Position numbers and translations under genes: made by a program. A DNA stretch of 64,000 nucleotides, from the NCBI GenBank assembly GCA_041661275.1, contig JBAZUU010000003.1, forward strand, positions 25,586 through 89,585, read 5' to 3'. Position 1 is the first letter of the stretch; each line of letters opens with the position of its first letter. The notes beneath the pieces are model-generated. The model worked only from the letters and a program-made list of their open reading frames with translations. It did not search any database and was not told where the DNA came from. The DNA comes from Parcubacteria group bacterium (GTDB taxonomy: Bacteria; Patescibacteriota; Minisyncoccia; Moranbacterales; UBA2206). Shown here one piece after another: positions 23,474 to 43,615 of the stretch.

Positions 23474-23547
23474 GCGGGATTCGTACAGTGGTAGTACATC
23501 GGTCTCCAAAACCGACGACGTAGGTTCGATTCCTACATCCCGTGCCA
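23474..23547 (+). tRNA. tRNA-Trp (anticodon CCA, CCA end encoded)
   Basis: Acceptor gcgggat/atcccgt. D-arm gtac-agtggtag-tac. Anticodon stem-loop tcggt-ctccaaa-accga. T-arm gtagg-ttcgatt-cctac. Discriminator g, then cca. Confidence 0.8.
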
Positions 23548-25137
23548 ACGTGTAATCAGCGAGCTTAATTGCTCGCTTTTTACTTTGTTAGAGCCACTTT
23601 CTCTCGGTTCTAACCCTTCATATTCACTATGCAAGGCAGGATACTTGTTTGTGATAGGCACAAACCAATCTTTGGCTTGAATGGCGGATATTTTGTCTTT
23701 TATGGCGTGGTTCGAGCCTAAATGCAAAATAAGCTCTCGTTTGCCCTCAAGGTCTCTTTTGAGAAATTCATTATGGGCGTAAGCCGCAAAAGAAAATGTC
23801 TTTTCCGTGAGCTCCAGCGTTTTTTCTTTGTTTTCTTCGGCGTGTTTCAGTTTATCCTCAAACTGGGCGATATTTTTCTTTAGCGTTTCCCGTTCAACTA
23901 CAAATTCATCATCGGTAATCAAATTTTTATAACGCATAGCCGTGAGGCTGGCAAGCTGATTTTTAGTTTCCGAAAGCGTTCTCTCTTGCATCTCTTTTAT
24001 TTTCTTCTCGTTATCAATCTCGGTGCCCTTTTTACTTTCGATAACTTCCAACGCCCAAGACAAAAATTCGGGAATCATTTCGTATTTTTCCAGTTCATAT
24101 TCCAGTTGCTCAAAAAGTTTTCTTTCCTCTAAAACTTTATTCTGCGTGCATTTTCTTTTTTTACTCTTTCTGGTGCAGTGATAATACGTATAGGCTCTTA
24201 GCTCGCCCGTGCTTTTAATGAGTTTATATTTTGTCTCTGCGGTATACATACAGCCACATTCCGGACAGCGGAACAAGCCAGTGAAAGGGAAATGGTGTTT
24301 TTTGGGTCTGGGTTTTCCCGCTCGTCCCAAAATGGCTTGAGCTCGGTCATATTCTTCGAGCGTTATCATTGGGGTGTGTTTTCCTGGATATTGTATGTTA
24401 TTGTGTTCGATAATTCCTGCATAAAAGATATTGGTAAAAATTTTATACATACCGCTCATTGCTAATGGCTTGTCTCCTAATCTCTTTTTCTTTATTGTCC
24501 GGAATCCCCATTCATTATTGAGCTTATTAAGGACTTGAGGCACTGTGTAATCACCAGTAAGCATTAAATCCCAAGCTTTACGAAGCAATCTGAATCGCAA
24601 TGGGTCTATTGGCATTGTGTGCGTTGCCAAATCATTTAAATAGCCTGTAGGTGCCATTCCAGGTCTCCACCCATCCTCTCGTTTCTTCTGGTTTCCTCTT
24701 TTAACAACCGTGCTTAAATCTCGAGAATACTGGTTAGCCATTCCACTTTCAACACTAAAAAGCAATACATTGTCCTCGGGTTTGTATTCCTTTTCTATTG
24801 TTTGGATTGATTTAATAACTCCTTGTTGCAAGAGCCAGCTTATTTTCCCGCTGTCTATTGGATTTCTGGAAAGACGGTTAAGGTGCCAGCATAAAATGCC
24901 ATCCGCCTCTCCACTTTCAATTCTTTTTATCATCTCATCGAATAGGGGACGATTGTTCGGTTTTTTGGCGGACTTTGATTCTTTGTAGGTATTCTTCACA
25001 TTAAAGCCCCTGTCCTTGGCTAATCGCTCCAGGCTTCCAACTTGGTCTTCGATTGATTGCACCTGGCGGTCTTCGCTTTCTGAAGATTTTCGAGCGTAGA
25101 GAAAATATTTTATTTCTTGCGGTTTAGTTGTTGCCAT
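23533..25137 (-). CDS. Large serine recombinase (phage/ICE integrase type)
   Basis: 534 aa. N-terminal resolvase catalytic domain (YARKSSESEDRQVQSIEDQ with catalytic Ser). Recombinase domain, zinc ribbon (CPECGC...YYHCTRK), C-terminal coiled coil. Confidence 0.8.
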   Translation of the reverse strand: MATTKPQEIKYFLYARKSSESEDRQVQSIEDQVGSLERLAKDRGFNVKNTYKESKSAKKPNNRPLFDEMIKRIESGEADGILCWHLNRLSRNPIDSGKISWLLQQGVIKSIQTIEKEYKPEDNVLLFSVESGMANQYSRDLSTVVKRGNQKKREDGWRPGMAPTGYLNDLATHTMPIDPLRFRLLRKAWDLMLTGDYTVPQVLNKLNNEWGFRTIKKKRLGDKPLAMSGMYKIFTNIFYAGIIEHNNIQYPGKHTPMITLEEYDRAQAILGRAGKPRPKKHHFPFTGLFRCPECGCMYTAETKYKLIKSTGELRAYTYYHCTRKSKKRKCTQNKVLEERKLFEQLEYELEKYEMIPEFLSWALEVIESKKGTEIDNEKKIKEMQERTLSETKNQLASLTAMRYKNLITDDEFVVERETLKKNIAQFEDKLKHAEENKEKTLELTEKTFSFAAYAHNEFLKRDLEGKRELILHLGSNHAIKDKISAIQAKDWFVPITNKYPALHSEYEGLEPRESGSNKVKSEQLSSLITRWHGM

Positions 25138-25249
25138 ATGATTATTATAATAATTTATTACTGATATAATTTTACCAAAAACGATTAGTTAAATTACATT
25201 TCAGGAAAAATGTGAAAAATTTTTGGAAAATTTATTGATGTTTTCATTA

Positions 25250-26002
25250 TCAACGAAAAAGTCGACTAAAAATATCCGGAGGCTCTTTTACGGGTATTAT
25301 TTTTTTCTTATGACGTAACTGCTCGAGTTTTTGTGTAATTTCTTTCATCCCGAGGATTCCACCCACGCCCCTAATTTCATTGATAGCCAGTTTTATATCT
25401 TCTTTCTTATAATATGTCTTATAAAATGACAAAGCCTTATTGGTTTCAGATTCTTCTGTATTTATTTTTTTTGGCTCGATTTCATCATATGATTTAATCC
25501 TATGATTTACAGGGTCAAATTCTACCTTAGTTGCGAGTTCATTTTGACTCTCTACCTTGTCCATTTTGACACTAGGCTCCAGATAGATGTTTTCCTTTTC
25601 AAAGCCAGGAAGCTTTTTCCAGACGGAAGTATCCAGAAGATAATAATTATTTACCATTCTTTTTCCAGGACGATTTACAAAAATCAGGTTGTACCTCTCA
25701 AGTTCTTTTAAGCCCTTCGATACGTACCGATTGTTGCAAATCCCGCCCTCTCTAACGATTTTTTCCATTCCTGGGAAGCACGCCTGAGTTTTTGCGTTAG
25801 CGTGTTTTGCTAATGAAAAATAAACCAGCGTAGCGTGCTTCGAAAGATTTTTGGCGTATCCCCATTCGTAATACTCATTGTCCACAAAAAATCTCTTTTG
25901 CTTGCCCTTTCTTCTAATCGGAAAATCAGGAGAAAACCCTCCGTGAGTCATTTTGAAAGCGGTGCTTCTGATTATTTTGTCTATACGTTTTATTTCACTC
26001 AT
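25250..26002 (-). CDS. HTH (winged-helix) DNA-binding protein, replication-initiator/HTH_36-like
   Basis: LVYFSLAKHANAKTQACFPGMEKIVREGGICNNRYVSKGLKELERYNLIFV resembles plasmid/phage HTH replication proteins. Confidence 0.4.
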   Translation of the reverse strand: MSEIKRIDKIIRSTAFKMTHGGFSPDFPIRRKGKQKRFFVDNEYYEWGYAKNLSKHATLVYFSLAKHANAKTQACFPGMEKIVREGGICNNRYVSKGLKELERYNLIFVNRPGKRMVNNYYLLDTSVWKKLPGFEKENIYLEPSVKMDKVESQNELATKVEFDPVNHRIKSYDEIEPKKINTEESETNKALSFYKTYYKKEDIKLAINEIRGVGGILGMKEITQKLEQLRHKKKIIPVKEPPDIFSRLFR

Positions 26003-26193
26003 ATTATTTTCATTTCCCGCCGCCTTTTTTGTAATAGCTTAAATTCCCGTTCCATCATCGGTTTATAAGTAAGCTCGACCTCACGTACAAGGCTTTCTGC
26101 CTGTTCGTGAGCCTCACTTAAATCAAGCTCCTTCCCGAGAAGCTCTCTATATAAAATCTGAAATTTTTTGATTTGTTTATCGGATAACGACAT
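25999..26193 (-). CDS. Small hypothetical protein (64 aa)
   Basis: ORF track. 4-nt overlap with the downstream gene. Confidence 0.35.
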   Translation of the reverse strand: MSLSDKQIKKFQILYRELLGKELDLSEAHEQAESLVREVELTYKPMMEREFKLLQKRRREMKII

Positions 26194-26311
26194 TTTTTGA
26201 AAATTAAAAATAGGCTATGTTTCAAGCCTACTTAAATTAAAAATGATTGTCGTTCTAGTCCGAGTGTTTCTTACATTTCTATGTGAATTTCTTAATACTT
26301 CTTAATGTTTC

Positions 26312-27001
26312 TTACTCGTCGATGTTTTTTAATTTTGCAATCCCTTCAGCAAGTTTATCTGGGTCTATGCTAAATTCTTCTATTTTATCTTTGGGAATGA
26401 AATTTCTAAATTTTACAGCATTCATTGAAACCTCAAAAAATAATTTCCGTATCTCATTGTTAAATCCAAGGTCGTTTAATATATGATGAAAGTCTTTTCC
26501 GATGGTCGCTTTCTCATTTTTTTCAATTTCATCCCTACGAATCAGTCTGTTGGGATTGCAAAAGACGTAGTTAAAAAAGTGGTCATTTTCTGACTCAAAG
26601 TTCGGCTTAGAAAGTTTATATTTATCATCCAGCGATATAGTTCTGTCTTCTTTGATGCTTATGTAATGACAATCCTTTTTGTTTATACGTCTTTCAAATT
26701 TTATTCCGTGTTCTTCACATAATTTGTCAAACCCAGGGCTTATTATTTTAATATCATACCAATTCGTTTTATTTTTATTTGCCTTTGCTCCATTTCTTGA
26801 TTTTTTTCTGCTCAAAATTTTTATAGCCTCAAAAACTTCTAAAACTTTTTCGACTATGTCTCTCTGGGTTTCTGGAAGTGGGTCTGTTTCTTGCGTATCA
26901 ATCTTGTACCACGTCCTGTCGCTTATTTTGGGATAATTTTCAAAATTATTTACAATTTTTTCAAGTACCCATTTTCTTTGTCGGGCTGATACTGAACTCA
27001 T
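26312..27001 (-). CDS. Hypothetical protein
   Basis: 229-aa ORF. No motif recognised. Confidence 0.45.
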   Translation of the reverse strand: MSSVSARQRKWVLEKIVNNFENYPKISDRTWYKIDTQETDPLPETQRDIVEKVLEVFEAIKILSRKKSRNGAKANKNKTNWYDIKIISPGFDKLCEEHGIKFERRINKKDCHYISIKEDRTISLDDKYKLSKPNFESENDHFFNYVFCNPNRLIRRDEIEKNEKATIGKDFHHILNDLGFNNEIRKLFFEVSMNAVKFRNFIPKDKIEEFSIDPDKLAEGIAKLKNIDE

Positions 27002-27269
27002 ATTTTTTATATTATTATTGATTCTTATATCCTTAACTTACCTCAAATCCGCCTTAAAATCAACTGAAAAACTTGATATTCTGGCTTTTTTGTAGTATCT
27101 TATAAGTGTTCACCTGCAGCAAATTTTTCGTGAGGAAAACTGCCTTTTCTATCCGATTACGGGTAGTAAGCGGCGGTCGAGTTCCATAATCGGACTTCCT
27201 CACGGATTGTCTGTTGTGGGTGAACGGCTCGGTCGTCGCTTTTTGTTTTGGCTAAATATTTATTTTAAT

Positions 27270-27842
27270 ATGATGAAAACTAAAATTCTGCCGATTATCA
27301 TTGGTTTAGGAATCGGAGTCGTAATATCTCCCGTCCTGGGAATGGCAATCAGCCCAACTAGAAATCTAATTATGAAACTGGCTCCCCAAGAAGCTATCTT
27401 GAGCTTGGCAGATAAAATCAAACAAAAGGAGACGAGCGAACAACAAAAATTAAGTTCTGAAGAAAAAGTCCAAGAAGTAATTCAGGAATCACAACCTGCA
27501 GAAAGTATTACGGAACCTCGACAGGAAATTATTCCCGCAGTTCAATCAGAAAACGACAAGGGACAGATAGAAGCCTGCCAAAATGCCAAAACCGAATGTG
27601 AGAAAAAAATAAAAAATATCAATAATGAAATAGATGATTTGGAAAACCAGGTCAAGGAGCAAGAAAAATTATATGGTGAAGCCAAAGAAAAGTATGGAAA
27701 CAGTACGAGCGACGGAGAGATAAAAATGTTGAAATATCGTGAGGCTATGTTGAAAAAATCAGAAGGAGATTTGAAATCCAGAAAGAAAGAGCTCCAGAAT
27801 ATCACTGGCGGAGAATGTAAAAATTATAATAAAACTTGTTAA
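27270..27842 (+). CDS. Membrane-anchored/secreted coiled-coil protein
   Basis: Start MMKTKILPIIIGLGIGVVISPVLG (TM/signal) within ORF-track ORF 27207. E/K-rich coiled coil. Confidence 0.45.
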   Translation: MMKTKILPIIIGLGIGVVISPVLGMAISPTRNLIMKLAPQEAILSLADKIKQKETSEQQKLSSEEKVQEVIQESQPAESITEPRQEIIPAVQSENDKGQIEACQNAKTECEKKIKNINNEIDDLENQVKEQEKLYGEAKEKYGNSTSDGEIKMLKYREAMLKKSEGDLKSRKKELQNITGGECKNYNKTC

Positions 27843-27846
27843 AAAA

Positions 27847-28239
27847 ATGAATCCACACTTTCAAAAAATAGGCGATGTTTTCCTAAATATTTCCAAAATT
27901 TGGGCTGGCGGGTGGGTTGTTATTATAGTCGCGTCTTTTCTAATAAATTCTGATAGCGATTTTATTCAAAATTTTTCGATACTGGATTTTTTCATTTTTT
28001 TAACCTTGGCATTTAGTCCATATATAATCATTAAAATAATAAAAATCGGGATGGAAAACAAAATAATAAATAACCAAGCAAAAAAGTATTGGCTGGTTTT
28101 AATTTTTATATTGATTTTTGGAGTTATTTTTTATTGGTTTGAATACCGACCAAGCCAGGCAAGAAAACAATGTTCCGCAAAATCATTCAGCGATAACTTA
28201 TATAAAAAATGTTTGCGGGAAAAGGGCTTGGAAAAATGA
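27847..28239 (+). CDS. Small multi-pass membrane protein
   Basis: 130 aa with three hydrophobic segments. Confidence 0.45.
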   Translation: MNPHFQKIGDVFLNISKIWAGGWVVIIVASFLINSDSDFIQNFSILDFFIFLTLAFSPYIIIKIIKIGMENKIINNQAKKYWLVLIFILIFGVIFYWFEYRPSQARKQCSAKSFSDNLYKKCLREKGLEK

Positions 28240-28694
28240 GCTATAAATCAAGCCAGTTTTACTTTTTATCTCTTTTGCTCTATATTTAAGGCACTTCACA
28301 AAGAAATCGAAACAAAGTATCCCGAAGGGAAGCGGACAGGAAACTGACCCAGAAGCCATATAAAATACCAGCGAGCATTAGTTCTTTTGTCGCCCTTGGC
28401 GAATAAGTCTCGCAGTATTTCCAATGAGAAGGTTGTCATCTTCTCACCGCACCGACCAAAAAGACGCTGGAAAGAATAATCCGCCGTAGGAGGAAAAATC
28501 TCAGCCTCGGGGTGTATCGAACGGTGCTAACATCCCCTAGACCAAGTAAAGGCCACTGCTTGTTTCGCAGAACAGTTCCATATCCTTACACGGGCAACCG
28601 TAGATGTAGGGTTATAGTTTATTTGTCCCAATTTAGCTTTTTGAGCTATATAGCTTTTTATACAGTTAATCCAATAAAGCCTTTGGCAACAAAA

Positions 28695-29402
28695 ATGCTT
28701 AGGAAAAAGCTATTAAGCAAAAAAGGGGCGATTTTGTCTCTTATTCTACTTTTTGGCATAATCGCAGTTATTTTTCTTTGGAATTATGAATTTAAGCCGG
28801 AAGAGAAACAGCAGATATGCCAACCGCTATTTTTGGAATACACCTTCGGCGATATTGATTCCCGCTTCAATCTGAAAAACGAAGAACTTATCGAAATGCT
28901 GAAAGACAGTGAGAAGATTTGGGAGGAACCGTTGGAATACGACGTTCTTCGCTACAATCCCGAAGCGTATTTTAAGATAAATTTTGTCTTTGACGAAAGA
29001 CAAGAATACGATATGCTCGAACAGGAATATTCCGAGCTTCAATATTCCCTCAATTTCTCGGAAAAAACCAAGAAAGAAACAGCAAAAATCCAAAAAGAAA
29101 TGGCTGTCATAGAAGCCAAGCAAGATTTGCTCTCCGATAAAATTTACAGCTCGGGAGAAAAATACGAGAAAGACGAAGCTTATACCCAGGGAGATTATAC
29201 GGGAAACTCCATCAATATTTATAATTTTGACGATAGGGATGAATTAGTAACGCTTCTCGCTCACGAGTTCGGGCACGCCTTGGAAGTTCCTGACAACCAA
29301 GACCCTGATTCGATTATGTGTGGGATTAACAGCGGACATTTTCGGCAGGCTACCCCAGATGATTTGGAAAAGGCGAAAGATTTTTGTGTAAGTTCAGAAT
29401 AG
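28695..29402 (+). CDS. Zincin-like metallopeptidase (HExxH) with N-terminal signal anchor
   Basis: HEFGHALEV...D..DSIMCG zinc-binding motif. Start at ATG 28695 (MLRKKLLSKKGAILSLILLFGIIAVIF); ORF track extends upstream to 28512. Confidence 0.5.
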   Translation: MLRKKLLSKKGAILSLILLFGIIAVIFLWNYEFKPEEKQQICQPLFLEYTFGDIDSRFNLKNEELIEMLKDSEKIWEEPLEYDVLRYNPEAYFKINFVFDERQEYDMLEQEYSELQYSLNFSEKTKKETAKIQKEMAVIEAKQDLLSDKIYSSGEKYEKDEAYTQGDYTGNSINIYNFDDRDELVTLLAHEFGHALEVPDNQDPDSIMCGINSGHFRQATPDDLEKAKDFCVSSE

Positions 29403-29449
29403 ATTTTTCGACATATAGCTTACAGTATTGAGAAATCTAAAAAAGTAAA

Positions 29450-30727
29450 ATGGACATACTTAGAAAGCCAATAAATTCATTTGGTCATAGCGATATAGTA
29501 TCTTTTTGTCAGGAAAAAAATCCTGAAGGTGTCCAGTTGGATTATAAGAAGGAACTTCCTCAAAGAGGCCTTGCTAAACATTTTGCCGCATTTTCAAATA
29601 CCAGAGGCGGTGTATTGATAATCGGGGTCGAGGAGGATAAAAAATCAGGATTTCCAGTTATGTGGGACGGAATCGAAGGAGATGCAAAAATGATTGAAAA
29701 AATTCACCAGGAAGCAAGTAATGTTGAGCCGATTCCTTCGTATGAAGTGCACGCTACCGATAAAATTGACGGCAGAAATTTTATTATTATTAGAATATTT
29801 GAAGGAGACAAAACTCCTTATTATGTCCAAAATGATTCTAATGTTTGGGTAAGGACTGGAAACATAAGTAATCCTATTGATATTGCCTCTCCAGATGGAT
29901 TGGAGTTGTTGTTTGGAAAAAAGGAAAAAGCTGAAAAGGCTAGAAATAATTTTTTACTGATAGGCAAGGAATTACACGAAGCGGCGATTGAGAAAGAAGA
30001 GAAAAAAATAAGAGAAGGATGGAAAAAAGAAATAGAAAAAGAAGGAGGTACGACTATTTTTAGATATGAAAAAATAATCGGAATTGATGATGCGATATGC
30101 AAAATAACACTACAGCCATATTTTCCAAGTAAATCACTTGTAGCTCCAAAAGAAATTAAAGACAATATTGATTCAATCCGCTTTAGAAATGGCAATTTTA
30201 CATTTCCGCAGTTAAATGTCGAGCCATCACCAAAAGGAATAAGATATTTTTCTTATCAAAGAAGCAGAGAAATACTTGAATCTCAGATAGTTCTTGGACA
30301 AGGACTAATTCAAAATATTTTTACAGTTTCAAGGAAAGGTCAGGATGAAGAACCTAGAATAATAAGCCTCCAAGCAATCGCCACTAGAGTTTTTGGAATA
30401 TTTAGATTTGCCGATAAATTCTACAATAAATACGGCTATCAGGGAGTGCTCATTGGAAGTATAGAAATAAGCGGGGCTGAAGATGCTCTAGCCAGAAGGA
30501 TAGTGCCATCGGGTATGGATTTTTGGGATAATGATAAAATAAAAGATAGCTTGCTGTCCGATTATTTATGGGAAATAAAAATTGATACAAGGATATTAAA
30601 AGAAAAGGATAAACTGAAAAAATATTACGAAGAAGTTCTGGAAGAAATTTATTGGGATTTTGGTTTTGAAGAATTTGGCGAAGGTGTTATTGATAAATTT
30701 TTTAAAGATAGCGGGTTCACATTCTGA
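29450..30727 (+). CDS. AlbA_2/Schlafen-like (divergent AAA, putative DNA-binding) domain protein
   Basis: N-terminus VQLDYKKELPQRGLAKHFAAFSNTRGGVLIIGVEED follows the AlbA_2 (PF04326) pattern E..lE.K......l.k.i.AfaN..GG.l.iGv.d. Confidence 0.5.
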   Translation: MDILRKPINSFGHSDIVSFCQEKNPEGVQLDYKKELPQRGLAKHFAAFSNTRGGVLIIGVEEDKKSGFPVMWDGIEGDAKMIEKIHQEASNVEPIPSYEVHATDKIDGRNFIIIRIFEGDKTPYYVQNDSNVWVRTGNISNPIDIASPDGLELLFGKKEKAEKARNNFLLIGKELHEAAIEKEEKKIREGWKKEIEKEGGTTIFRYEKIIGIDDAICKITLQPYFPSKSLVAPKEIKDNIDSIRFRNGNFTFPQLNVEPSPKGIRYFSYQRSREILESQIVLGQGLIQNIFTVSRKGQDEEPRIISLQAIATRVFGIFRFADKFYNKYGYQGVLIGSIEISGAEDALARRIVPSGMDFWDNDKIKDSLLSDYLWEIKIDTRILKEKDKLKKYYEEVLEEIYWDFGFEEFGEGVIDKFFKDSGFTF

Positions 30728-31006
30728 TGATTTATCAAGGTCAATTTCAGGGGGTAATTTTGGTTCATATTACATTTTTAATACCCACCTCTTCATAGAA
30801 GGGTTTGAAATCTTAATAGAATCTGGAATATCTGATAGCTAAACTCCAGATTATAATTTCCGCGAAAATGTTGACAAAATGCCGAAAGTGTTATACGATA
30901 GCACATCGGTTCTTTTTATTTCTATGCGGGCTATAAATGGCTGAAATCCATTAAAAATATAGGTGACTTCAACATCAGAAAAAAAACCAAAAGGAGGCAA
31001 GTAATT

Positions 31007-31885
31007 ATGAAATCCGTAAAAACAGTAATGATACTGGCGGAAGAAAAAAGGAAGCGTGCAGATGTTCTGGCTCAACAGGCCAAGGACATTTACACCGAAG
31101 TCAGTCAGGATTGGAACAACATTGCCCAACGTATCAGGGATGGAGAAACCTCGGGCGACCCGCTCAAGGATTTTATCGCCACAAGGTATTTCGCATTCGA
31201 CGAAAAAACCGAAGAGCGTTTCCGTGCCCTTCAAGCAAGGTTCAAGAATTTTCAAGGGCAATATGCAATGCTGGTGCGGGTAAGTAAGGAGAGGAGTCAC
31301 GCACATAGCGATAATTTCGTCGAAAAAACGGAGTTGAGCGTCGGTGTCCTCAGCGGAGACTCATTTATCCTTGACCCGCCTCAGGCACTGTTCTGGTTTC
31401 CTACGGGCGGTAAGAATGCCGTTTGCTACGACCGCTTCAATCAAAACCCCGTTTATATGCGTGAGGGCGACCTGACTCTTCCGCTCCTTGAAGATATGGG
31501 GCTCAAAACATCGTCTGAACTGCAAATCCTCATCGGAGACGAAGAAGTTGCTGGCTGGTTTGAGGAACAGCGTGGTGAAAATTATTTCAAGGTTTTTTGT
31601 GGCTTCAATGCAGTTCTGGGCAGGTCAGTGATACATCCCAGGCTCTCGGTCTATCTCAGCAAAAAACGGGACGAGTGGCTTAAGGAACACGACGCCTTGA
31701 AAGCCAAGAAGGTCTGGCTGGAAGCCGAGTGCAAGCGACTCAAGAAGCCAGGCGTAACCGACGGCAGTGTGGTCAAAATGGAAAAAGAAATTCAGGAAAT
31801 TCCCGAAAGGATAAAGGCCATCATCTCTGAGGCTTCTGGCTGGGGCGTCAATGACCTGGACTGGGAAAACGCCACCGCAGCCTAA
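31007..31885 (+). CDS. Hypothetical protein (gene 1 of a GC-rich three-gene cassette)
   Basis: 292-aa ORF. SD aaaaggagg before ATG. Promoter-like ttgaca-N17-tacgat at about 30873-30901. GC markedly higher than flanks. Confidence 0.5.
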   Translation: MKSVKTVMILAEEKRKRADVLAQQAKDIYTEVSQDWNNIAQRIRDGETSGDPLKDFIATRYFAFDEKTEERFRALQARFKNFQGQYAMLVRVSKERSHAHSDNFVEKTELSVGVLSGDSFILDPPQALFWFPTGGKNAVCYDRFNQNPVYMREGDLTLPLLEDMGLKTSSELQILIGDEEVAGWFEEQRGENYFKVFCGFNAVLGRSVIHPRLSVYLSKKRDEWLKEHDALKAKKVWLEAECKRLKKPGVTDGSVVKMEKEIQEIPERIKAIISEASGWGVNDLDWENATAA

Positions 31886-32101
31886 CGCAGTCCATTACAG
31901 CCCGTGTTTTTTGGAGAAGGAACACTACCGTTCCTTCTCCCCATTTCTAAGTTTGGCAGTAAATGGTAAATTTGGATGATGGATTAAATAAAGTTCTTTT
32001 TAGCGATATGACTTCGGGATGAAGTCATATAAAAAATTATTAACTCGATAGTAAGCGGGATGCTTCCTATCATAACCAGCTAAAAGCTGAAGGAGTTTGT
32101 G

Positions 32102-32662
32102 ATGAGCACTATGTCCGAAAAAAGAAGAGATGCGTTTTTTGAGGAATTTCCTTGGCTCAGCAAATATGTAAAGTTGAAACACAGGAAATATATCAGAAGC
32201 ATCAAGGTGTCCAGAGCGGATAAAGACTTACTCGGAAGAACTGCTTTGTCTGAGTTTATCGACAAAGGCGAGGACAGCTACTATATTTTCGAGCAACTCG
32301 TCCTTCTTGATGAAAATGGCGACATCCTAAAGCGAGAACTTCCCTCAGAGGATTTCAGTATCTGGAGACCTTGCACCTGGAGAAGGCATCGTTTCATTGT
32401 TGGCAGAGTAACCGAACCTCATACTGTTGCAGAATGTATTGTTAGTCTCGGTTCTGAATCTGAAAGGATTGCGTTTATCTTTTCTGTTTTCTGTAATAAC
32501 CTTGTAATCTACAAGCCTCCCAAGAAGTTTAATATTCAGACGCTTCTAGAAGAGGTTGAAGAAGATAAGAGACGGGAAGCGGAAGAAGAGAAGAAAAAAG
32601 AAGCAGAAATCTTTGATGCTCAAAAACAATCTATCCGAAAAGAATGGGAATCGCTGGATTAA
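32102..32662 (+). CDS. Hypothetical protein (gene 2 of the GC-rich cassette)
   Basis: SD aaggag then ATG 32102. K/E-rich C-terminus. Confidence 0.45.
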   Translation: MSTMSEKRRDAFFEEFPWLSKYVKLKHRKYIRSIKVSRADKDLLGRTALSEFIDKGEDSYYIFEQLVLLDENGDILKRELPSEDFSIWRPCTWRRHRFIVGRVTEPHTVAECIVSLGSESERIAFIFSVFCNNLVIYKPPKKFNIQTLLEEVEEDKRREAEEEKKKEAEIFDAQKQSIRKEWESLD

Positions 32663-32681
32663 CTAAAAAGGAGAACCTTCT

Positions 32682-33041
32682 ATGGTTGCCGAGACGTGGA
32701 CAGTTTCAACTGAGGACAAGCTCGGGTTTAGGATGTATCCTCTTCGGGACGAGAAACGCCAGTTTCCTGATATGGTGCCTGTGAGCATACACATTGGTAA
32801 GTTTTCCTGTCGTGGATATGTGCCCAGCGAAGAATACGACGGGCATTACGAGTCGCCGTATGCGGAACTCATCGTTAAATATGACAGTTCCGAAAGGATG
32901 CAACCCGACCTGACCAAGTGGAATTTCCAGAAGATGTCCTGCTGGCTGACAAAGGACGCTGTAGCCTATTCGCTCTATATCAAGAAGCAGAAATTGGAGC
33001 GGTTACGAACTTACCTGCGAAATTCCTGCAGGCTTCCGTAA
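32682..33041 (+). CDS. Hypothetical protein (gene 3 of the GC-rich cassette)
   Basis: 119-aa ORF 19 nt after gene 2. SD aaaaggag. Confidence 0.45.
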   Translation: MVAETWTVSTEDKLGFRMYPLRDEKRQFPDMVPVSIHIGKFSCRGYVPSEEYDGHYESPYAELIVKYDSSERMQPDLTKWNFQKMSCWLTKDAVAYSLYIKKQKLERLRTYLRNSCRLP

Positions 33042-33070
33042 CAGCATCTTTCAGACAATCATTGACCAAA

Positions 33071-33110
33071 AGGCGGCACAGAGAACCATATTCTGCACCG
33101 CCTTTTTCTT
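33071..33110 (+). terminator. Rho-independent terminator closing the GC-rich cassette
   Basis: ggcggcacagagaaccatattctgcaccgcc hairpin followed by tttttctttt. Confidence 0.5.
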
Positions 33111-33148
33111 TTGAACGAAAAAAATTAAAAATTTTTATCTAGAAAGTT

Positions 33149-33200
33149 TTTAGAAGTATTTCTGGCTATGTCTCATTTTTATCCCCCCTCCCTCTTGTTA
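33149..33200 (-). pseudogene. 5' gene remnant A (SD GGGAGGGGGG plus ATG, ORF MRHSQKYF*), paralogous to remnant B
   Basis: Minus-strand ATG at 33173-33175 preceded by gggagggggg. About 85% nt identity with 36222-36272. Confidence 0.4.
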
Positions 33201-33225
33201 GGGGTTTGTGTTATAATTTGCTTGT

Positions 33226-34210
33226 GATGCTATCATTAGAAACTAAAACTAAAGAAATAATCGACAGTCTAGTCCGACTAGCTAGGGAAGTAGAAATTTG
33301 CAATGGAATGGGCTTTTTTGATGGCAATAAATGTGCCGAAGATTTTTTTAAGGGCATTTTGAACCGTGTTTATGACTGCAATCTTATCAATCTTAATTTG
33401 GAAAAAAATAATTTTCCAGCAGTTGACTTAGGCGATAAATCCAAGAGATTAGCAATTCAAGTTACAGCGAGCACGGGGAGAGCAAAAATTTCAAATTCTA
33501 TAACGAAATTTGTAAATCATAACCTCTACGAAACTTATAAAAAGCCAATATTCTTAATCATTGGAAAAAAGCCAAAATATTCCAAAAATTTCGATGCCGA
33601 CACGGAGGGAAAATTTATTTTCAACCCTTCTGAAGATATTTTAGATATTACCGATTTAATAAAAATAATTTCTTCTTTACCCGTTGAAAAAATCACAGAC
33701 CTTAATGAGTTTATTATTTCTAATGTTACCGACGTATTATCTATTGACCCGATTAAAATTAACGAGCAGGATATTAAAAATTTAATTCTAGGCATAAGAG
33801 ATGCTATAAATGACGATACCTCGTTTAAACAAAAATATTCCAGTGATATTCCGATGAGATTCCAGGATTATATTGTAGAAAAAAATAAACTAAACGAGAT
33901 AGATAAATTGTTTTTTGAACAGGTGTTCGCTAGAAGTCTCGCGTATAGCGATGATATTAAGAATTTTTTATCCGACCCCATAAACGCAGAGATAAAAGAG
34001 TGGTATTTTACTATTAGTAGTGAACTTCAGAATGAATATATAAAAAATAGAGATAATTTCGATTTGTTGGAATTTATAGACAAGATTTATGATAAGGTCT
34101 GTAGAAAATTTAAGGCGGATTTGTCATATGACAAAAGAAAAATTAAGGTAATGCTTCATTGTATGTATTTTCATTGTGATTTAGGAATAAATCCAGAGGA
34201 AAAAACATAA
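33226..34210 (+). CDS. Putative effector with SMEK-like/restriction-endonuclease-fold N-terminal domain (candidate ABC-3C C-component)
   Basis: Motif NFPAVDLGDKSKRLAIQVTASTG (D...QVT, PD-(D/E)xK-like). ATG 33226 preceded by tataat at 33211. ORF track begins at TTG 33206. Confidence 0.4.
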
Positions 34211-34452
34211 TGATAACACCAAATAAATATACAAATTTAGACTTATCAGTCTTGAATATCGGGGCTGAAATTGTTAAGGTGCTTCAGAAAAGCAGTCTTC
34301 TTAAATATGATGACCTGTTAAATCAGATTCTGCTAAAGAAGGGGAGGGGGGCGAAAGAAATTTTTGTCTATTCTTTAAATTTTTTATTTGTTCTGAATAT
34401 AATTAAATACCATAGTTCTGAGGATATAATCGAATTTTATGAAACTCGTTAA
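34210..34452 (+). CDS. Small protein (80 aa), candidate ABC-3C middle component
   Basis: Start overlaps the upstream stop (TAATG). Its end overlaps the downstream ATPase by 14 nt. Confidence 0.4.
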   Translation: MITPNKYTNLDLSVLNIGAEIVKVLQKSSLLKYDDLLNQILLKKGRGAKEIFVYSLNFLFVLNIIKYHSSEDIIEFYETR

Positions 34453-36199
34453 GATATATTCTAATATTTCCAGTATGAAGCCAGTTATTTTTAATTCTGG
34501 CTTAAATATAATATACGGCGATGTAAGTCAATATGAAGGAGACAGCAATGAGCATAATTTAGGAAAAACTTCGCTTGTCTACCTGATAGATTTTTTGTTA
34601 TTAAAAAAAATAGATAAAAATAATATATTTAGGAAAAGAAGGAGTAATTTCTTAGGCTGGGATTTTTATTTGGAAGTAGAGCTGGATGATAAATCATACC
34701 TTACGATTAAAAGAAATCTGGTTAATGATTCCAGAATATCAATTAAGCTTCATAAGGAAGGAAATCAGGACTTGTCGTCGGAGGTGTTTTGGGACTATAA
34801 AGATAAATCAATAAGTGCGAAAAAAGAAGAGGAAAATGCGGTTAAGATTTTGAAAAATATATTGAAATTCGATGTCTTAAGCGAATATAATTTGAGGCAT
34901 TTTCTTTCCTATCTTCTAAGAACCCAAAATGATTATGCGGATGTTTTTAGATTAAGCACGTTCAAAAAAGACAAAAACTGGAAGCCACCCCTTCTTTCTC
35001 TATTTGGATATAACGGACAACTATTTGAGAAGAAGTATGATTTAGAGCAGGAAATTTCTATCCGTAGAGAATTGATTGCAAAAATGAAGTCGGATAATCT
35101 CATAGAGAAATCAGAGGAAGCTTTCAAATTACAAGCTGCCATTAAGGCTAGGGAGGATGAAAAGAAATCAATAGAAAAAAATCTTGAAATGCTCAATTTT
35201 TTTACCAGGGATGAACAAATGACGGAAAAAATAGTGAAAGAATTTGAGACAAAAATTAGTATCCTAAATTCTGAGGAATATAGCCTAAAATACGAGGTCG
35301 ACAAGATTAATAAATCATTGGAAAATAATGTTTCCGTTAAAGTTTCTGATGTTAAAAAGATATATGAAGAGGTGGAAATATTTTTTCCAGATAAGCTTAC
35401 TAAATCTTATGAGGAATTAGCCAATTTTAATAAGCAAATTTCAGACGAGAGGTCAAAATACCTAAAAAAAGAATTGGACAATCTGAATGATAGGCTGATG
35501 ATTATTAAAAAAGACCTCAAGGAATATAATGATAAGTTATCAGAAGCCTTATCGATAATAAAGGAGAAAGATGCATTTATAAAATTTAGGAAATATCAAA
35601 ATGAGCTTATAAAAATAGAAACAGACATTGCCATATATAAACAAAAAATTGAGAGTATAGACACTATAGAAAATTATAGTAATGCGATTAGCGAGATAAG
35701 AGAAAAATCCAAAGAAATATCCTCAATAATTAAGGGGGATTTGGCGGAAGAAAAAAATCCATTGCAAGAAATACGTGAGATGTACACTGAGATTTTTAGA
35801 AAAACTATGGATGGAACTGCTACTTTCGCAATAACTCCAAATAAATATGGTTATTTTGATTTTGAGCCGTTTGTAATAAGCGGCGGTGATTTAACAGGGC
35901 AGGGAGATGGATACACCGCTACAAAAGTTCAATGTGCCGCGTTTGTTATAGCGGCATTGGCTTACTATTCAAAAAATTCTTTTTATAAATTTGCCTATCA
36001 CGATGGCATTTTTGAGGGCTGGGGAGATAATCCTAAGATAAATTTTATCAATCTAATTAGGGAATATTGTGATAAATATAAAATTCAGTATATCGCAAGT
36101 ATGATAAAAAGTGATATTCCCAAAAACTTTGATTTTGAAAAAGAAGAAATAATAATTACTTTAGACAAAAACCAGCCATTATTTGGTATCAAATTTTGA
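34439..36199 (+). CDS. SMC/ABC-type ATPase with long coiled-coil insert (candidate ABC-3C ATPase)
   Basis: N-terminal head KLVKIYSNISSMKPVIFNSGLNIIYGDV...NLGKTSLVYL (RecF/SMC-like Walker A). Roughly 230-aa heptad-rich coiled coil. C-terminal head with FAYHDGIFEGWGD (Walker B/D-loop-like). Confidence 0.5.
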   Translation: MKLVKIYSNISSMKPVIFNSGLNIIYGDVSQYEGDSNEHNLGKTSLVYLIDFLLLKKIDKNNIFRKRRSNFLGWDFYLEVELDDKSYLTIKRNLVNDSRISIKLHKEGNQDLSSEVFWDYKDKSISAKKEEENAVKILKNILKFDVLSEYNLRHFLSYLLRTQNDYADVFRLSTFKKDKNWKPPLLSLFGYNGQLFEKKYDLEQEISIRRELIAKMKSDNLIEKSEEAFKLQAAIKAREDEKKSIEKNLEMLNFFTRDEQMTEKIVKEFETKISILNSEEYSLKYEVDKINKSLENNVSVKVSDVKKIYEEVEIFFPDKLTKSYEELANFNKQISDERSKYLKKELDNLNDRLMIIKKDLKEYNDKLSEALSIIKEKDAFIKFRKYQNELIKIETDIAIYKQKIESIDTIENYSNAISEIREKSKEISSIIKGDLAEEKNPLQEIREMYTEIFRKTMDGTATFAITPNKYGYFDFEPFVISGGDLTGQGDGYTATKVQCAAFVIAALAYYSKNSFYKFAYHDGIFEGWGDNPKINFINLIREYCDKYKIQYIASMIKSDIPKNFDFEKEEIIITLDKNQPLFGIKF

Positions 36200-36203
36200 T
36201 TTT

Positions 36204-36272
36204 TTAAATAAGAGGTTTCAGGAAGGATTTCTGGCTAAGCCTCATATTTTAGACCCCCTCCCCCCATTCGGC
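36204..36272 (-). pseudogene. 5' gene remnant B (SD GGGGGGAGGGGG plus ATG, ORF MRLSQKSFLKPLI*), paralogous to remnant A
   Basis: Minus-strand ATG at 36243-36245. Peptide MRLSQKSF vs MRHSQKYF in A. Confidence 0.4.
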
Positions 36273-36325
36273 GGGTTTGGAGTCAGCTTTTTATAAAAAA
36301 TATAATAGTGGGTAGGGGATAGCGA

Positions 36326-36517
36326 TTACTGATGATTTTTTCTTAGGTCAGGTATGTAAATATACTCTTTTTTGTTCTCAAAGATAGTTATGACTTCCTC
36401 TACAACTGCGTGCCAGTCAAAACAAGGCTTATTTAGGCCTTGTTTTTGTATGGGGGTGGTAGGATGTTCGAACTGGCCGGCAAGCCGTTGACTTATGGCT
36501 GATTTTATGCAAGTATA
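36326..36517 (-). pseudogene. 3' gene remnant C1 (63 codons, no start; ends ...WHAVVEEVITIFENKKEYIYIPDLRKNHQ*)
   Basis: Codon-by-codon minus-strand translation from stop at 36326-36328 up to the in-frame stop at 36518-36520. Paralogous to 37980-38087. Confidence 0.45.
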
Positions 36518-36606
36518 TTAAGTCATAGCTCTTTTACAGGCAAAAAGCAGGCTACAGGCAGTAGCCAGAATTGCACCGGCTGATTATCAGAAAAAGGAGA
36601 ATAGGC

Positions 36607-37221
36607 ATGCAGGCGAGAATTAAAGGCTTTGTAGTAGGAGCCGACAGACCCTTTGAGGGTGGCGTCAGAGGCAAAAAGGTTTGGAAAGTCCGAGTCAAGG
36701 ATGAAAGTCACGAAGACAACGGCAAAAAGTTTGAGGTTGCCGAAGGCCATTGGAAGAGATTTTTTTCCAAAGGGCTTGATGTGACATTTGAACTCGGAAA
36801 TTTCCAGGAAGGCGGACAGGCAGTTCGCAAAGCTATCAATGTCAAGTTGTTAGACAACAAAACGGAAGCAAAGGAGCTTCCAATGGAAAAAGCGAAAATT
36901 GTCCAAGACCCTGACACTCTGTACGTGCTTATCACGGAATGTCGCGGCGAACTCAGCGTCTACTTCACTGGCTTTGAGACCGAGGAAGAAGCGGTTGCAT
37001 TTTTTATCAAGGAAACTGGCGAGAATGAAGCGGATTCGGAAAAGGTTGTTTGTTTTATTCCCTTCAATATCTATGATTGGACAGAAGACGCTCTTGATCC
37101 TGATATTGTAAATGGATTCGCGGTCGTTCGTTCTCTCGTAGGTATTACTTCCGCTCAGGAAGCCTTGGAAAAAATGATGACTGTTATTCTCAGGTCTTTT
37201 GCTACCAGAAAGGAAGAATAA
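36607..37221 (+). CDS. Hypothetical protein (gene 1 of a two-gene cassette)
   Basis: SD aaaaaggagaatagg then ATG 36607 (MQARIKGF...). ORF track starts at 36571. Confidence 0.45.
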   Translation: MQARIKGFVVGADRPFEGGVRGKKVWKVRVKDESHEDNGKKFEVAEGHWKRFFSKGLDVTFELGNFQEGGQAVRKAINVKLLDNKTEAKELPMEKAKIVQDPDTLYVLITECRGELSVYFTGFETEEEAVAFFIKETGENEADSEKVVCFIPFNIYDWTEDALDPDIVNGFAVVRSLVGITSAQEALEKMMTVILRSFATRKEE

Positions 37222-37222
37222 C

Positions 37223-37891
37223 ATGCGTATTCTGGTCATTGACGATACTCAGGGACATCTCGATGCGGCTCGACAAACTCTTTCAGGGCACGACCTTACT
37301 CTTTGCTCTTCTCATGACGAAGCTGTTAAGCTTCTCCTTTGGAAATACGATGATAATGAGAAGAGTCAAAGAATCAAGCAATATGAATCAGAAGGTCTGA
37401 AGTGGACTGATGCCTACGAAAAGGCGGAACAGGAAACAAGATTGCCCTATTGGGAGGTCGTTCTTTGTGACCTGCTCATGCCTGCTGGTAGCAGAGAACA
37501 GGGTTCGGGTCGTCATTTAGTTGGTCAAGAAATGGCTGTTGGTTGGTCACTCGCTTTGCAGGCAGTAAAAAACGGTGCCAACTATGTAGCCGTGATTACT
37601 GAATTAAATCATCACCAACATCCTGCTAGTGCCATGATTGATAAAATCAATGGGCACATTTTCACCATTGACAATGCTAAAATGCTCATGACCAATTACG
37701 TCGAAACCGTTGGTATTAAGGGTACCGAGGGTAAATGTATTGAATGCGGTGGTACTGGCAAGCACAGAAAGTGGGGATATGAAGATAATTGCCACTTCTG
37801 CAAAAACGGCATCGACTTTTTGGTAAAGGGCAAGGATTGGGGTAAGATTCTCAACCTGCTTCTCACAGGAAAAAGCATCGATGACGAATAA
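37223..37891 (+). CDS. REC (CheY-like receiver)-like domain protein with C-terminal zinc ribbon
   Basis: MRILVIDD start and VVLCDLLMP (phospho-acceptor-like D). C-terminus CIECGGTGKHRKWGYEDNCHFCKNG. Confidence 0.4.
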   Translation: MRILVIDDTQGHLDAARQTLSGHDLTLCSSHDEAVKLLLWKYDDNEKSQRIKQYESEGLKWTDAYEKAEQETRLPYWEVVLCDLLMPAGSREQGSGRHLVGQEMAVGWSLALQAVKNGANYVAVITELNHHQHPASAMIDKINGHIFTIDNAKMLMTNYVETVGIKGTEGKCIECGGTGKHRKWGYEDNCHFCKNGIDFLVKGKDWGKILNLLLTGKSIDDE

Positions 37892-37892
37892 T

Positions 37893-37955
37893 AGTGTGGA
37901 CTGAGCAGACCTACTGCTCCTGCCAAGGCGAACGCTTTGGCAGTTTTTTATTTAT
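37893..37955 (+). terminator. Tandem hairpins plus T-run after the two-gene cassette
   Basis: ctgccaaggcgaacgctttggcag followed by ttttttatt. Confidence 0.45.
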
Positions 37956-37979
37956 ATAGTGAGCGACACAGTGGGGTAG

Positions 37980-38087
37980 CTATACATTTAAACTCAAATC
38001 AGGAATATAAATATACTCTTTTTTATTCTCAAAAATAGTTCTAACGTCCTTTACTAAGGCGTGCAAATATCCTAAAAATGGCTCTAA
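37980..38087 (-). pseudogene. 3' gene remnant C2 (35 codons; ...LEPFLGYLHALVKDVRTIFENKKEYIYIPDLSLNV*)
   Basis: Minus-strand translation. In-frame stop immediately upstream. The C-terminal 20 aa match C1. Confidence 0.45.
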
Positions 38088-38180
38088 TTAGCCATTTTTT
38101 GTTGGGTAGGCACGCAGCTGGGGTTATGTTAGGCTAAAAACGTGAAAATACCATATTTATTCTTCTTTTTCACGGTTATG

Positions 38181-38209
38181 TTGACAAAAACGTGAAAAAA
38201 GAGTATAAT
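38181..38209 (+). promoter_or_regulatory. Perfect sigma-70 consensus promoter TTGACA-N17-TATAAT with flanking aaaacgtgaaaa direct repeats
   Basis: ttgaca 38181-38186 and tataat 38204-38209. Two copies of aaaacgtgaaaa at 38138 and 38187. Confidence 0.6.
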
Positions 38210-38217
38210 TGTAATAT

Positions 38218-39105
38218 ATGACAAAAACACTCAATGTCTACAATAAAATAAGTTTTCTTCGTGAAAGATATTATAAAGCGTCTATTGGTAAAGAAGCGCT
38301 TATTAAACTTATTGCTGAAACTGAAATTGCCGAGCAGGTATATAACTCGAATGCAATAGAAAACAGCACGCTCACGCTTGAAGAAACTGAAAAAATACTC
38401 CTTCAAATTGATCTGGACAGATATATAACTGAACGAGAAATTTTTGAGGCTAAAAATCTAGCGAGAGTCGTGTCGTATATTAGCAAGAGGGCCAAGGAAC
38501 AAGAGCTTGCTCTTGAGGTGATTTTGTCGCTACACAAGATGCTGATTTCTAATATTCGTGATGATATTGCGGGAAGATTCAGGCGTGACAATGAATTTGT
38601 TCGAGTTGGAAATTATATCGCTCCTGGTCCGCAAGAAGTGTTGGGTCGTCTTGAAAAAATGTTAAATGAATATAACGCGGAAAGTCATGAAAATATTATC
38701 AAACGCATAGCAAGATTACATCTTGCTTTTGAGCATATTCACCCTTTCTGCGATGGTAATGGACGAATCGGGCGAGTAATTAATAATTATTTGCTGATGC
38801 GAGAGGGATTTGTTCCAATAAACATAAAATTTATTGATAGAAAAAAATATTACGAAGCATTTAAAGAATTTGACGTGAAAGGCGCGACTGCTGTCATGGA
38901 GGAAATTGTAGGAAAGGCGTTGACCAATAGTTATTACAAGCGTTTGGCCTATTTGGAGGGAAAGGAAATTATCACCCTGGCTGATTATGCGAAAAAGAAT
39001 AAAATTTCTCACTCGAATCTTATTAATAAAGCAGGAAGACAAACTATCGAAGCTTTTTTAGAAAAAGGAATTTGGAAGATTGGCGTCGATCATAACGGAA
39101 AATAA
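38218..39105 (+). CDS. Fic family protein (AMPylase/Fido domain)
   Basis: HPFCDGNGRIGR is the Fic motif HPFx(D/E)GNGR. Confidence 0.8.
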   Translation: MTKTLNVYNKISFLRERYYKASIGKEALIKLIAETEIAEQVYNSNAIENSTLTLEETEKILLQIDLDRYITEREIFEAKNLARVVSYISKRAKEQELALEVILSLHKMLISNIRDDIAGRFRRDNEFVRVGNYIAPGPQEVLGRLEKMLNEYNAESHENIIKRIARLHLAFEHIHPFCDGNGRIGRVINNYLLMREGFVPINIKFIDRKKYYEAFKEFDVKGATAVMEEIVGKALTNSYYKRLAYLEGKEIITLADYAKKNKISHSNLINKAGRQTIEAFLEKGIWKIGVDHNGK

Positions 39106-39289
39106 TTAATATTTGCGTGATTGATGGTTAAATCTATCCCATCAACGCCATTGCGCGCTCCTTTTTTACCTCAATTCGATCCCAATTTTCCAAAATATTG
39201 TTTCTAGTCGTATCTACTAGCCCGTGCGAAATTTGCTAAAATAGCCGTTAGATTATAAAATAGAGCCAAGGGAAGAACCCCTTGGTTTT

Positions 39290-41092: not shown

Positions 41093-41151
41093 GAGGATAA
41101 TAGAAAAACGAACCATCAAGGCTCGTTTTTTTTGTGGGCTGTGGATAACTT

Positions 41152-43605: not shown

Positions 43606-43615
43606 TTAGAATAAT

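Follow-up and report, generated by a model that had tools for sequence, protein, structure and literature searches.

The region at positions 23541-39227 of the window (the whole 64,000-nucleotide stretch of contig JBAZUU010000003.1 from a Parcubacteria group bacterium) is very probably a composite genomic island that was assembled at the 3' end of a tRNA-Trp gene through integration by a large serine recombinase (LSR). All of the evidence on the island comes from sequence comparison. We conclude from it that the attachment site of the element, attP, lies inside the open reading frame (ORF) of the LSR itself, directly past a conserved tryptophan codon. By the same comparison, integration at the tRNA end cuts off the last 25-30 codons of the LSR gene, and this tail is left at the far end of the element, in the attR junction. 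In the integrated state, the LSR ORF reads antisense into the tRNA gene up to a chance stop codon, and the conserved tail is exchanged for tRNA-antisense residues. A first-pass annotation of the same DNA had described one LSR-borne element of about 15.7 kb, with a 534-amino acid (aa) LSR ORF that overlaps the tRNA 3' end. The LSR, its overlap with the tRNA and the size of the whole block (15,682 bp from core to core) are borne out by our analysis. The single element is not, given that the island holds three attR-type junctions (at 36409, 38060 and 39221) and that the elements of three relatives end in the type found at the first of them. The features of the island are collected in Table 1.

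Table 1. Features of the tRNA-Trp island and predicted junction sequences, in window coordinates
Feature	Position	Strand	Support
tRNA-Trp (CCA); 3' end forms the B arm of the attachment site	23474..23547	+	ARAGORN
LSR, 534 aa, integrated tail-less form; last codons antisense to tRNA acceptor and T arm	23533..25137	-	Pfam Resolvase, Recombinase, Zn_ribbon_recom; PHROG integrase
CCCGTGC, overlapping the attL core; common to the outermost junction	23539-23545	.	exact-string search
attL core CGTGCCA	23541..23547	.	exact-string search
Hairpin and T-run within LSR codons SEQLSSL, 11 nt past the tRNA	23558..23577	+	terminator scan
HTH_36 protein, candidate replication initiator	25250..26002	-	Pfam PF13730; PHROG replication-initiation families, E 4e-8
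Conserved 64-aa protein	25999..26193	-	tblastn matches in 57/80 LSR loci
229-aa gene (-), two membrane proteins and zincin-like protein (+)	26312..29402	.	E1 backbone common with L230; Matrixin match
Schlafen AlbA_2 (SLFN_AlbA_2) protein	29450..30727	+	Pfam PF04326, E 1e-15; 76% aa identity to L009
Three-gene cassette without assigned function (genes 31007-33041, GC 0.45-0.49)	30757..33174	+	L009 homology jumps from 30756 to 33175
Predicted ABC-3C conflict system: SMEK_N+CTD12 effector, MC6/MC8 middle component, DUF2326 ABC ATPase	33206..36199	+	Pfam; PADLOC PDC-M68B
Copies of the ~65-100-nt motif	30729-30829, 33128-33216, 36197-36301		also L009 5447-5550, 2376-2480; L010 4993-5066
attR1: tail 1 (HAVVEEVITIFENKKEYIYIPDLRKNHQ, stop) 36325-36412 and core CGTGCCA 36409-36415; right end of E1	36325..36415	-	in-frame LSR fusion
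LSR-less module 2: hairpin 36420-36452, two unknown genes 36607-37221 and 37223-37891, attR2	36416..38064	+	hairpin homology to L135
attR2: tail 2 and core CGTGC	37980-38063, 38060-38064	-	exact-string search, profile
LSR-less module 3: hairpin 38078-38104, Fic promoter 38181-38209, Fic 38218-39105, attR3	38065..39227	+	Fic Pfam match
attR3: tail 3 and core CCCGTGC (= 23539-23545)	39134-39226, 39221-39227	-	outer island end
Native flank B': spacer, terminator hairpin 39266-39285, ABC exporter 39380-41092	39228..41092	+	exporter orthologue after tRNA-Trp in relatives
Predicted attP(E1) junction: ...CTCTACAACTG-CGTGCCA-ACGTGTAATCAGC... (also ...GACTTCCTCTACAACTG/CGTGCCA/ACGTGTAATCAGCGAGC...)			
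Predicted attB junction after E1 loss: ...CCTACATCC-CGTGCCA-GTCAAAACAAGG... (also ...TTCGATTCCTACATCC/CGTGCCA/GTCAAAACAAGGCTTATTT...)			
Predicted whole-island empty site: ...CCTACAT/CCCGTGC/GAAATTTGCTAAAATAGCC...			

Evidence for an attachment site within the recombinase gene

The LSR ORF overlaps the 3' end of tRNA-Trp by 12-15 nucleotides (nt), and its stop codon lies inside the tRNA gene, which Rfam RF00005 places at 23474-23544 with 67.8 bits. We took 80 LSR loci from a scan of genomes in which aligned LSR homologues were the query. In 54 of them the LSR ORF likewise runs antisense over the 3' end of a convergent tRNA gene, and another six are cut by contig ends. The tRNA targets at the 54 loci are His (21), Trp (9), Asn (9), Gln (7), Ser (3), Asp (2), and Lys, Glu and Ile (one each). 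The codon of the near-invariant LSR residue W531 is TGG, the antisense of the tRNA CCA.

Where an LSR has no tRNA gene next to it, the ORF runs on for 25-35 aa past this Trp codon and carries the conserved motif xIVxDVRTxI...YIPDL. Such full-length, tailed forms are found in L010, L025, L044, L057, L078, L084, P0006 and P0119. Detached copies of the tail, on the same strand as the LSR and 4-9 kb upstream of it, occur in L054, L036, L018, L039, L028, L023, L032 and L068, none of which gave a sequence to our tail profile. Furthermore, joining the LSR to the distal tail at a shared core of 6-9 nt, which consists of TGG and the first bases of the acceptor strand, produces an in-frame full-length ORF in six independent loci with five types of tRNA (Gln, Trp, Lys, Asn and His). 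All three tails of the window likewise fuse in frame with the LSR; for tail 2, the script chose a spurious core, and the frame was verified by hand at CGTGC. The detached tail at the element end and its in-frame rejoining argue for the location of attP within the LSR gene.

The tails differ mostly by synonymous codon changes. Tail 1 of the window differs from the L009 tail by nine synonymous and two non-synonymous codons and from the L010 tail by 11 and two, and the L009 and L010 tails differ from each other by 15 and two. Therefore, the tail is translated in some state. To judge from these codons, the detached tails are under purifying selection, which would need a recurrent return to the joined state. 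Excision would restore the full-length LSR. The tail would thereby give the excised and integrated states different forms of the enzyme, possibly biasing the direction of the reaction.

Integration also appears to remodel the end of the tRNA gene. At the unoccupied sites of L135, L141 and L110, the next base after the tRNA-Trp gene is A or T, and hence CCA is not encoded. The tRNA-Trp gene of the window reads ...GTGCCA, with CA coming from the element side as at most of the LSR-occupied tRNA-Trp sites inspected, L009 excepted. Because the element side supplies CA, integration turns the tRNA-Trp gene into a CCA-encoding one. In addition, every tRNA-Trp attL site inspected has the hairpin and T-run within the LSR codons at the same distance from the tRNA. 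With them the P' arm, itself part of the LSR coding sequence, supplies a terminator for tRNA-Trp in place of the native one that is seen at empty sites. attL would resemble a tRNA with its terminator, or the P arm would mimic the B arm, and either likeness could permit repeat insertion.

Native neighbourhood and island boundaries

What order of genes does the island interrupt? The first-pass annotation had taken it to be rpmG-tRNA-Trp-(secE-nusG) and had expected secE, nusG and rplK to continue at an empty site. In a metagenome scan with the tRNA-Trp 3' sequence (120 loci), secE-nusG-rplK follows tRNA-Trp in most loci. The tRNA bodies at these loci differ from that of the window, and we read the group as probably Bacteroidota-like. 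Relatives with the same rpmG-tRNA-Trp arrangement have a terminator and the ABC exporter instead. In L141/L099, tRNA-Trp is followed by a terminator hairpin and an orthologue of the ABC exporter that starts 86 nt past the core. In L110, where TPR, tRNAs and rpmG precede tRNA-Trp, a single exonuclease-like gene separates the tRNA from the exporter orthologue (55-79% aa identity). The secE-nusG-rplK continuation is absent from these unoccupied sites, and L11, L1 and NusG are not detectable in the window or in relatives that share the rpmG-tRNA-Trp arrangement, which accords with the earlier remark that secE and nusG are missing from the window. Therefore, the order that the island breaks is rpmG-tRNA-Trp-ABC exporter, not secE-nusG. 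Insertion of the island has, in all probability, separated tRNA-Trp from its native exporter. On the other side, tRNA-Trp is preceded by tRNA-Thr, tRNA-Tyr, tRNA-Thr and rpmG.

Since the exporter is the native neighbour, the outer end of the island lies between Fic and the exporter. The exporter and proS come after Fic, outside the island, and housekeeping genes resume past the distal site as first annotated. A distal attachment site had been suggested near 39.2 kb, and a true junction is found there, with the core CCCGTGC that matches attL and is conserved in L135. The similarity of this site extends to relatives: positions 39140-39228 are 79% identical to L135 (E 7e-15), next to the same CCCGTGC, and tail 3 DNA at 39176-39228 is homologous to the LSR extension of L010. 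Positions 39167-39232 had been regarded as a degenerate T arm and acceptor of the tRNA. They are better read as the P arm of attP, which encodes the C-terminal tail of the LSR and apparently mimics the tRNA half-site. The likeness of attR3 to the tRNA is limited to CTAC...CGTGC, as would be expected for two half-sites bound by the same enzyme.

Blocks of identity between attL and attR measure only 5-7 nt. The window contains no direct repeat of the tRNA longer than 10 nt, which is the chance level, and no tRNA 3' repeat above chance occurs in the upstream flanks of the other loci (up to 10 kb, less at contig ends), with the exception of L028. The model in which attR is a direct repeat of the 3' part of the tRNA, in the style of tyrosine integrases, was therefore dropped. 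L028 is the sole locus with a long direct repeat of a tRNA 3' end (24 nt of tRNA-Asn, at 3294-3317). The repeat lies approximately 100 nt outside the detached tail, a position for which the simple model gives no account.

Junctions within the island

The three tail-plus-core junctions argue that the island is composite. Tail 1 marks the end of the element in several relatives of the LSR: L009, where the LSR is 72% identical, the host synteny is the same and homology to the window stops at 36456; L230/L231, where the LSR is 85% identical and positions 36222-36421 are 91% identical at the nt level; and L010, at its own distal end. With a tail of type 1 at the element end in these closest relatives of the LSR, we delimit at 23541-36415 an apparently intact element of 12.9 kb (12,868 bp from core to core), here called E1, with the core CGTGCCA at 23541-23547 and 36409-36415. 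Just past attR1 comes a hairpin (AAAACAAGGC...) with a homologue in L135, where it stands immediately behind tRNA-Trp. L192 and L171 have tails that are 82-85% identical to tail 2, which scores 51 bits in the hidden Markov model search. The hairpin after attR2 (AAAATGGCT...AGCCATTTT) is the hairpin that follows tRNA-Trp in L229 and attR in L009.

A single 15.7-kb element from the tRNA to 39227, with the inner tail-like sequences as internal repeats without a role, would agree with the 7-nt core shared by attL and the outermost junction, with the in-frame fusion of tail 3 and with the absence of the whole block from L141 and L110. This explanation is nonetheless quite improbable. It does not fit the elements of three related LSRs that stop at the tail-1 type, the 7-nt core that attR1 has of its own, CCA included, the post-tRNA sequence that follows attR1, or the LSR-less modules that are bounded by tRNA-Trp and a tail in many relatives.

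Stacked arrangements recur among the LSR loci. LSR-less units with one to a few cargo genes lie between tRNA-Trp and a tail relic in L126, L127, L135, L143, L171, L192 and L229; the unit of L229 lies between the tRNA and a full-length LSR. L018 has two LSR elements in tandem, and its second LSR is fused to the tail of the tRNA-proximal element. L010 has three detached tails upstream of the LSR, one strong and two weak, in addition to the tail attached to the LSR. Therefore, repeated insertion at one tRNA is common in this LSR family. Modules 2 and 3 of the window may be the remains of, or cassettes from, earlier insertions that were pushed outward by later ones.

Another way to explain the LSR-less modules is that they are small cassettes, each made of a hairpin, cargo and a tail with core as a minimal attP, which were captured in trans by a resident LSR, so that the tRNA 3' end would be an integron-like platform. 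L126, L127, L135, L143, L192 and L229 all have units of this kind at tRNA-Trp, 0.75-1.5 kb long and with one to three cargo genes; the hairpin lies directly after the core and the tail at the far end. A cassette would also account for the position of the L229 unit, for the presence of one hairpin family with different cargo in L229, L009 and the window, and for the lack of detectable LSR, HTH_36 or 64-aa protein remnants in modules 2 and 3. However, an identical cassette was not seen in two different arrays, the hairpin flanks are without the GTGTAAT motif of LSR-borne P' arms, and deletion on the LSR side combined with selection for a tRNA terminator gives the same pattern. We regard trans capture as a minority possibility, behind a composite island formed by successive insertions.

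Gene content

The gene content listed in the first-pass annotation, namely the HTH, zincin, Schlafen, ABC-3C and Fic genes and three genes of unknown function, holds, except for the label 'REC' given to 36571-37891, which has no support in Pfam, PHROG or NCBIfam. The 64-aa and 229-aa genes, the three-gene cassette and the 'REC' pair match nothing in Pfam, PHROGs, NCBIfam or PADLOC. The GC (guanine plus cytosine) differences that it had reported between cassettes are real when measured: GC content shifts from cassette to cassette, from 0.45-0.49 at 31-33 kb to 0.28-0.32 at 33.5-36 kb and 0.43-0.46 at 36.5-38 kb.

The core module of E1 comprises the 64-aa gene, the HTH_36 gene and the LSR, in the same order as in L229 and L230. 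The 64-aa protein is approximately 50-65% identical among the loci that encode it, and its gene is found upstream of those for HTH_36 and the LSR in every case. It may serve as a recombination directionality factor or as a regulator. Positions 27043-29428 are 86.6% identical to L230 at the nt level, and L230 has other cargo. The E1 cargo itself is, by this comparison, of a swappable defence type and consists of the zincin and Schlafen genes, the three-gene cassette, which is absent from the L009 element, and the ABC-3C operon. The assignment of the last follows from an ATPase, a middle component and an effector in one operon, which we predict to form a conflict system. The operon is 91% identical to L009 at the nt level and 91-97% at the aa level, compared with 72% for the LSRs and 51-67% for host proteins. 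Cargo that is more alike between hosts than the host genes are indicates cargo exchange.

Each E1 cargo cassette is followed by a copy of a motif of about 65-100 nt (TTTCAGGrrGwATTTCyGGC...ATTTTTA.CCCCCTCCC...GGGTTTG), which brackets the three-gene cassette and was found only in this element lineage. The motif was considered as a structured RNA and rejected, with a weak consensus fold (-4.9 kcal/mol) and two covarying pairs.

In module 3, the Fic promoter is a perfect TTGACA-17-TATAAT (12/12 match, 38181-38209). The Fic module at 38166-39086 is 77% identical at the nt level to a region of L085 that lies beside another tRNA, and the homology starts exactly at 38166. Three copies of CGTGAAAA/TTTTCACG lie around the promoter (38136-38210) and look like an operator arrangement.

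Could the element be a prophage? It combines an integrase at a tRNA with a replication-initiator-like gene, as a prophage might. However, the ten proteins of E1 and module 2 that were compared with PHROGs match integrase and replication-initiator families only, and no capsid, tail, terminase or lysis family, and the remaining island ORFs have non-phage Pfam or PADLOC assignments. Moreover, LSR relatives in IMG/VR are only 32-38% identical, and a length of 12.9 kb is too small and is filled with defence-type cargo. A prophage is thus extremely improbable.

Outside the island, a gene of the PDDEXK_5 nuclease family lies at 22494-22892, between tRNA-Thr and tRNA-Tyr in the tRNA cluster. No homologue of it was found by tblastn in the syntenic relatives among the LSR loci.

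The recombinase family

The LSR contains a catalytic domain (PF00239, E 9e-21, residues 12-156) with the motif Y-A-R-K-S-S-E-S, which is invariant across 36 homologues, a Recombinase domain (PF07508, 24.4 bits against a cut-off of 21.1) and a zinc ribbon (PF13408, 32.7 bits against a cut-off of 25.3) whose Cys residues are invariant among homologues. A search at E <= 1e-20 returned 4152 homologues, and the relatives named are Patescibacteria. In NCBIfam, the LSR is weakly similar to XisF and Ccr, with every score far under the family cut-offs.

The closest LSR, P0001, is 85% identical overall. By eye, it is nearly identical to the window LSR from approximately residue 280 to the end, and its N-terminal half is much more diverged, a pattern that suggests recombination between LSR genes. 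Public contigs often stop no more than a few hundred bases from the 3' end of the LSR or from the distal tail (L013, L021, L039, L041, L050, L073, L086, L088, L230 and L231), and assemblies seem to break at these att sites. Such breaks may hide elements of this kind from island-finding tools.

Searches for mobile forms

Several observations weigh against a composite island that was built by a mobile, tail-switching LSR. No circular or excised form was found in metagenome or viral collections, and the whole-island empty junction has no match in the JGI metagenomes. The tail profile was trained partly on the three tails of the window; support for the tail comes from matches in other loci, blastn and contiguous full-length ORFs. 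The tailed LSRs of L044, L057 and L078 sit within large chromosomal contigs, and thus a tail alone does not mean the excised state. The truncated LSR keeps all of its recognised domains. Finally, the sequences on the right-hand side of the inner cores resemble native terminator flanks (B') and not LSR 3' ends (P'), and therefore stacking with the newest unit nearest to the tRNA, followed by LSR deletion, is not proven. In the further searches, the attL/attP string has no match in IMG/VR, and a strain-level empty site was not found in the JGI metagenomes.

The lack of an excised form in the JGI metagenomes and IMG/VR would also be expected if integration truncated and disabled the LSR in a 'suicidal' manner of SSV type and left the element fixed and immobile. 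The integrated LSR is without the conserved tail, and SSV-family integrases split their own gene on integration (PMC7253208). However, the catalytic and DNA-binding domains and the invariant residues of the LSR are intact, the detached tails appear to be under purifying selection, and the genes of the hosts have diverged further from each other than the cargo has. We consider such a fossil unlikely.

The window forms part of a 101.5-kb contig of a metagenome-assembled genome (ENA ERZ27249449, equal to GCA_041665805.1). Logan assemblies contain two contigs of 14.68 kb (SRR6484324 and SRR18595301) that are 100% identical to 23516-38196 and both end there. A third contig (SRR6484324) resumes at 38358, and the host flank 38358-45938 is present in the same run. 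The gap between the contigs, 38167-38387, takes in the Fic promoter together with 57 codons from the start of Fic and suggests a second sequence context or a variant of this stretch in the samples. The idea that the contig ends are att sites was rejected, given that the de Bruijn-graph break models (attB/attL/attR, attP) share no dinucleotide. Any co-occurring relative that shares the tRNA 30-mer would fit the left break, and L135 has the exact 30-mer; the right break falls where the Fic module begins. The Logan contig ends are therefore no evidence of mobility.

Comparison with known systems and significance

The LSR shares its domain set (Resolvase, Recombinase and zinc ribbon with a long insert) with phiC31, Bxb1, A118, TnpX/TndX, CcrAB and XisF. 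As with phiC31-type serine integrases, the identity between attL and attR is short (5-7 nt here), and the integrase gene lies beside the att site. In contrast to those enzymes, the window LSR targets the extreme 3' end of a tRNA gene and appears to carry attP inside its own ORF. It has been said that tRNA genes are not used by serine integrases, and arguments on integrase mechanism have drawn on this contrast (PMC7192596). Mageeney et al. (2020) described tRNA use by serine integrases as previously unreported and found it in 14 of 297 candidates (PMC7192596). No description of the present LSR family was found in the literature searched, the coverage of which was incomplete.

The closest parallel to the split gene is found in SSV-family tyrosine integrases, which have the recombination site in their own ORF, so that integration at a tRNA splits the gene and the pieces flank the element (PMC7253208, PMC8371274). 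The window LSR resembles them in the location of attP within the integrase ORF and in the division of the gene between the element ends upon integration at a tRNA. However, it is a serine recombinase, unrelated to the tyrosine enzymes, and does not qualify as one of them. It loses only the last 25-30 codons, with the known domains kept in one piece, and its hosts are bacteria, mostly Patescibacteria, whereas the SSV family belongs to archaeal viruses and plasmids.

Stacking at a tRNA has a parallel in the tycheposons of Prochlorococcus, which carry cargo and replication genes beside tRNAs and in which successive insertions push older ones outward and degenerate remnants build islands; 910 of 937 tycheposons use tyrosine recombinases (10.1101/2020.12.28.424599). 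Partial tRNA copies separate the stacked units there, whereas the window has detached LSR tails and a core of 5-7 nt without tRNA duplication. Like classical tRNA islands of tyrosine integrases, the window island keeps its tRNA target intact, places the integrase gene beside the tRNA and carries accessory or defence cargo. Unlike them, it has no long direct repeat of the tRNA 3' end, its recombinase belongs to a different family, and its crossover lies at the CCA/discriminator end and not in the anticodon or T loop. The island is not an integron: it holds no tyrosine recombinase, and its cassettes end in an LSR tail with core or in the motif of about 65-100 nt, not in attC.

A change in the C-terminus upon integration is known from another setting. 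In the cluster G mycobacteriophages described by Broussard et al. in 2013, attP reportedly lies inside the repressor gene, and integration is said to remove a C-terminal tag. As in that switch, attP would lie near the 3' end of the LSR ORF, so that integration alters the C-terminus. The repressor is split there, by a tyrosine integrase, whereas the recombinase itself is split here and no degradation tag is evident.

A broader proposal, which we put forward tentatively, is that this LSR family makes tRNA 3' ends into integron-like capture platforms. The toggle between full-length and C-terminally swapped LSR would act as a state sensor, and attL, or the tRNA-mimicking P arm in attR, would stay a usable target. 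LSR-bearing elements and minimal LSR-less cassettes could then be added serially and would build up defence islands within the reduced Patescibacteria genomes.

The findings revise the generalisation on serine integrases, with a family of thousands of members that regularly targets tRNA 3' ends of at least nine isoacceptors. They reveal a bacterial serine-recombinase counterpart to the archaeal split-integrase design, in which the split appears mild and conserved under selection, and the dependence of the enzyme form on the integration state becomes directly testable. LSRs whose natural attB is short and universally conserved, as the end of a tRNA is, would be attractive tools for genome insertion, including in not-yet-cultivable organisms. 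For the Patescibacteria, which have tiny genomes and few recognised mobile elements, such integration may explain how defence genes are gained and stacked.

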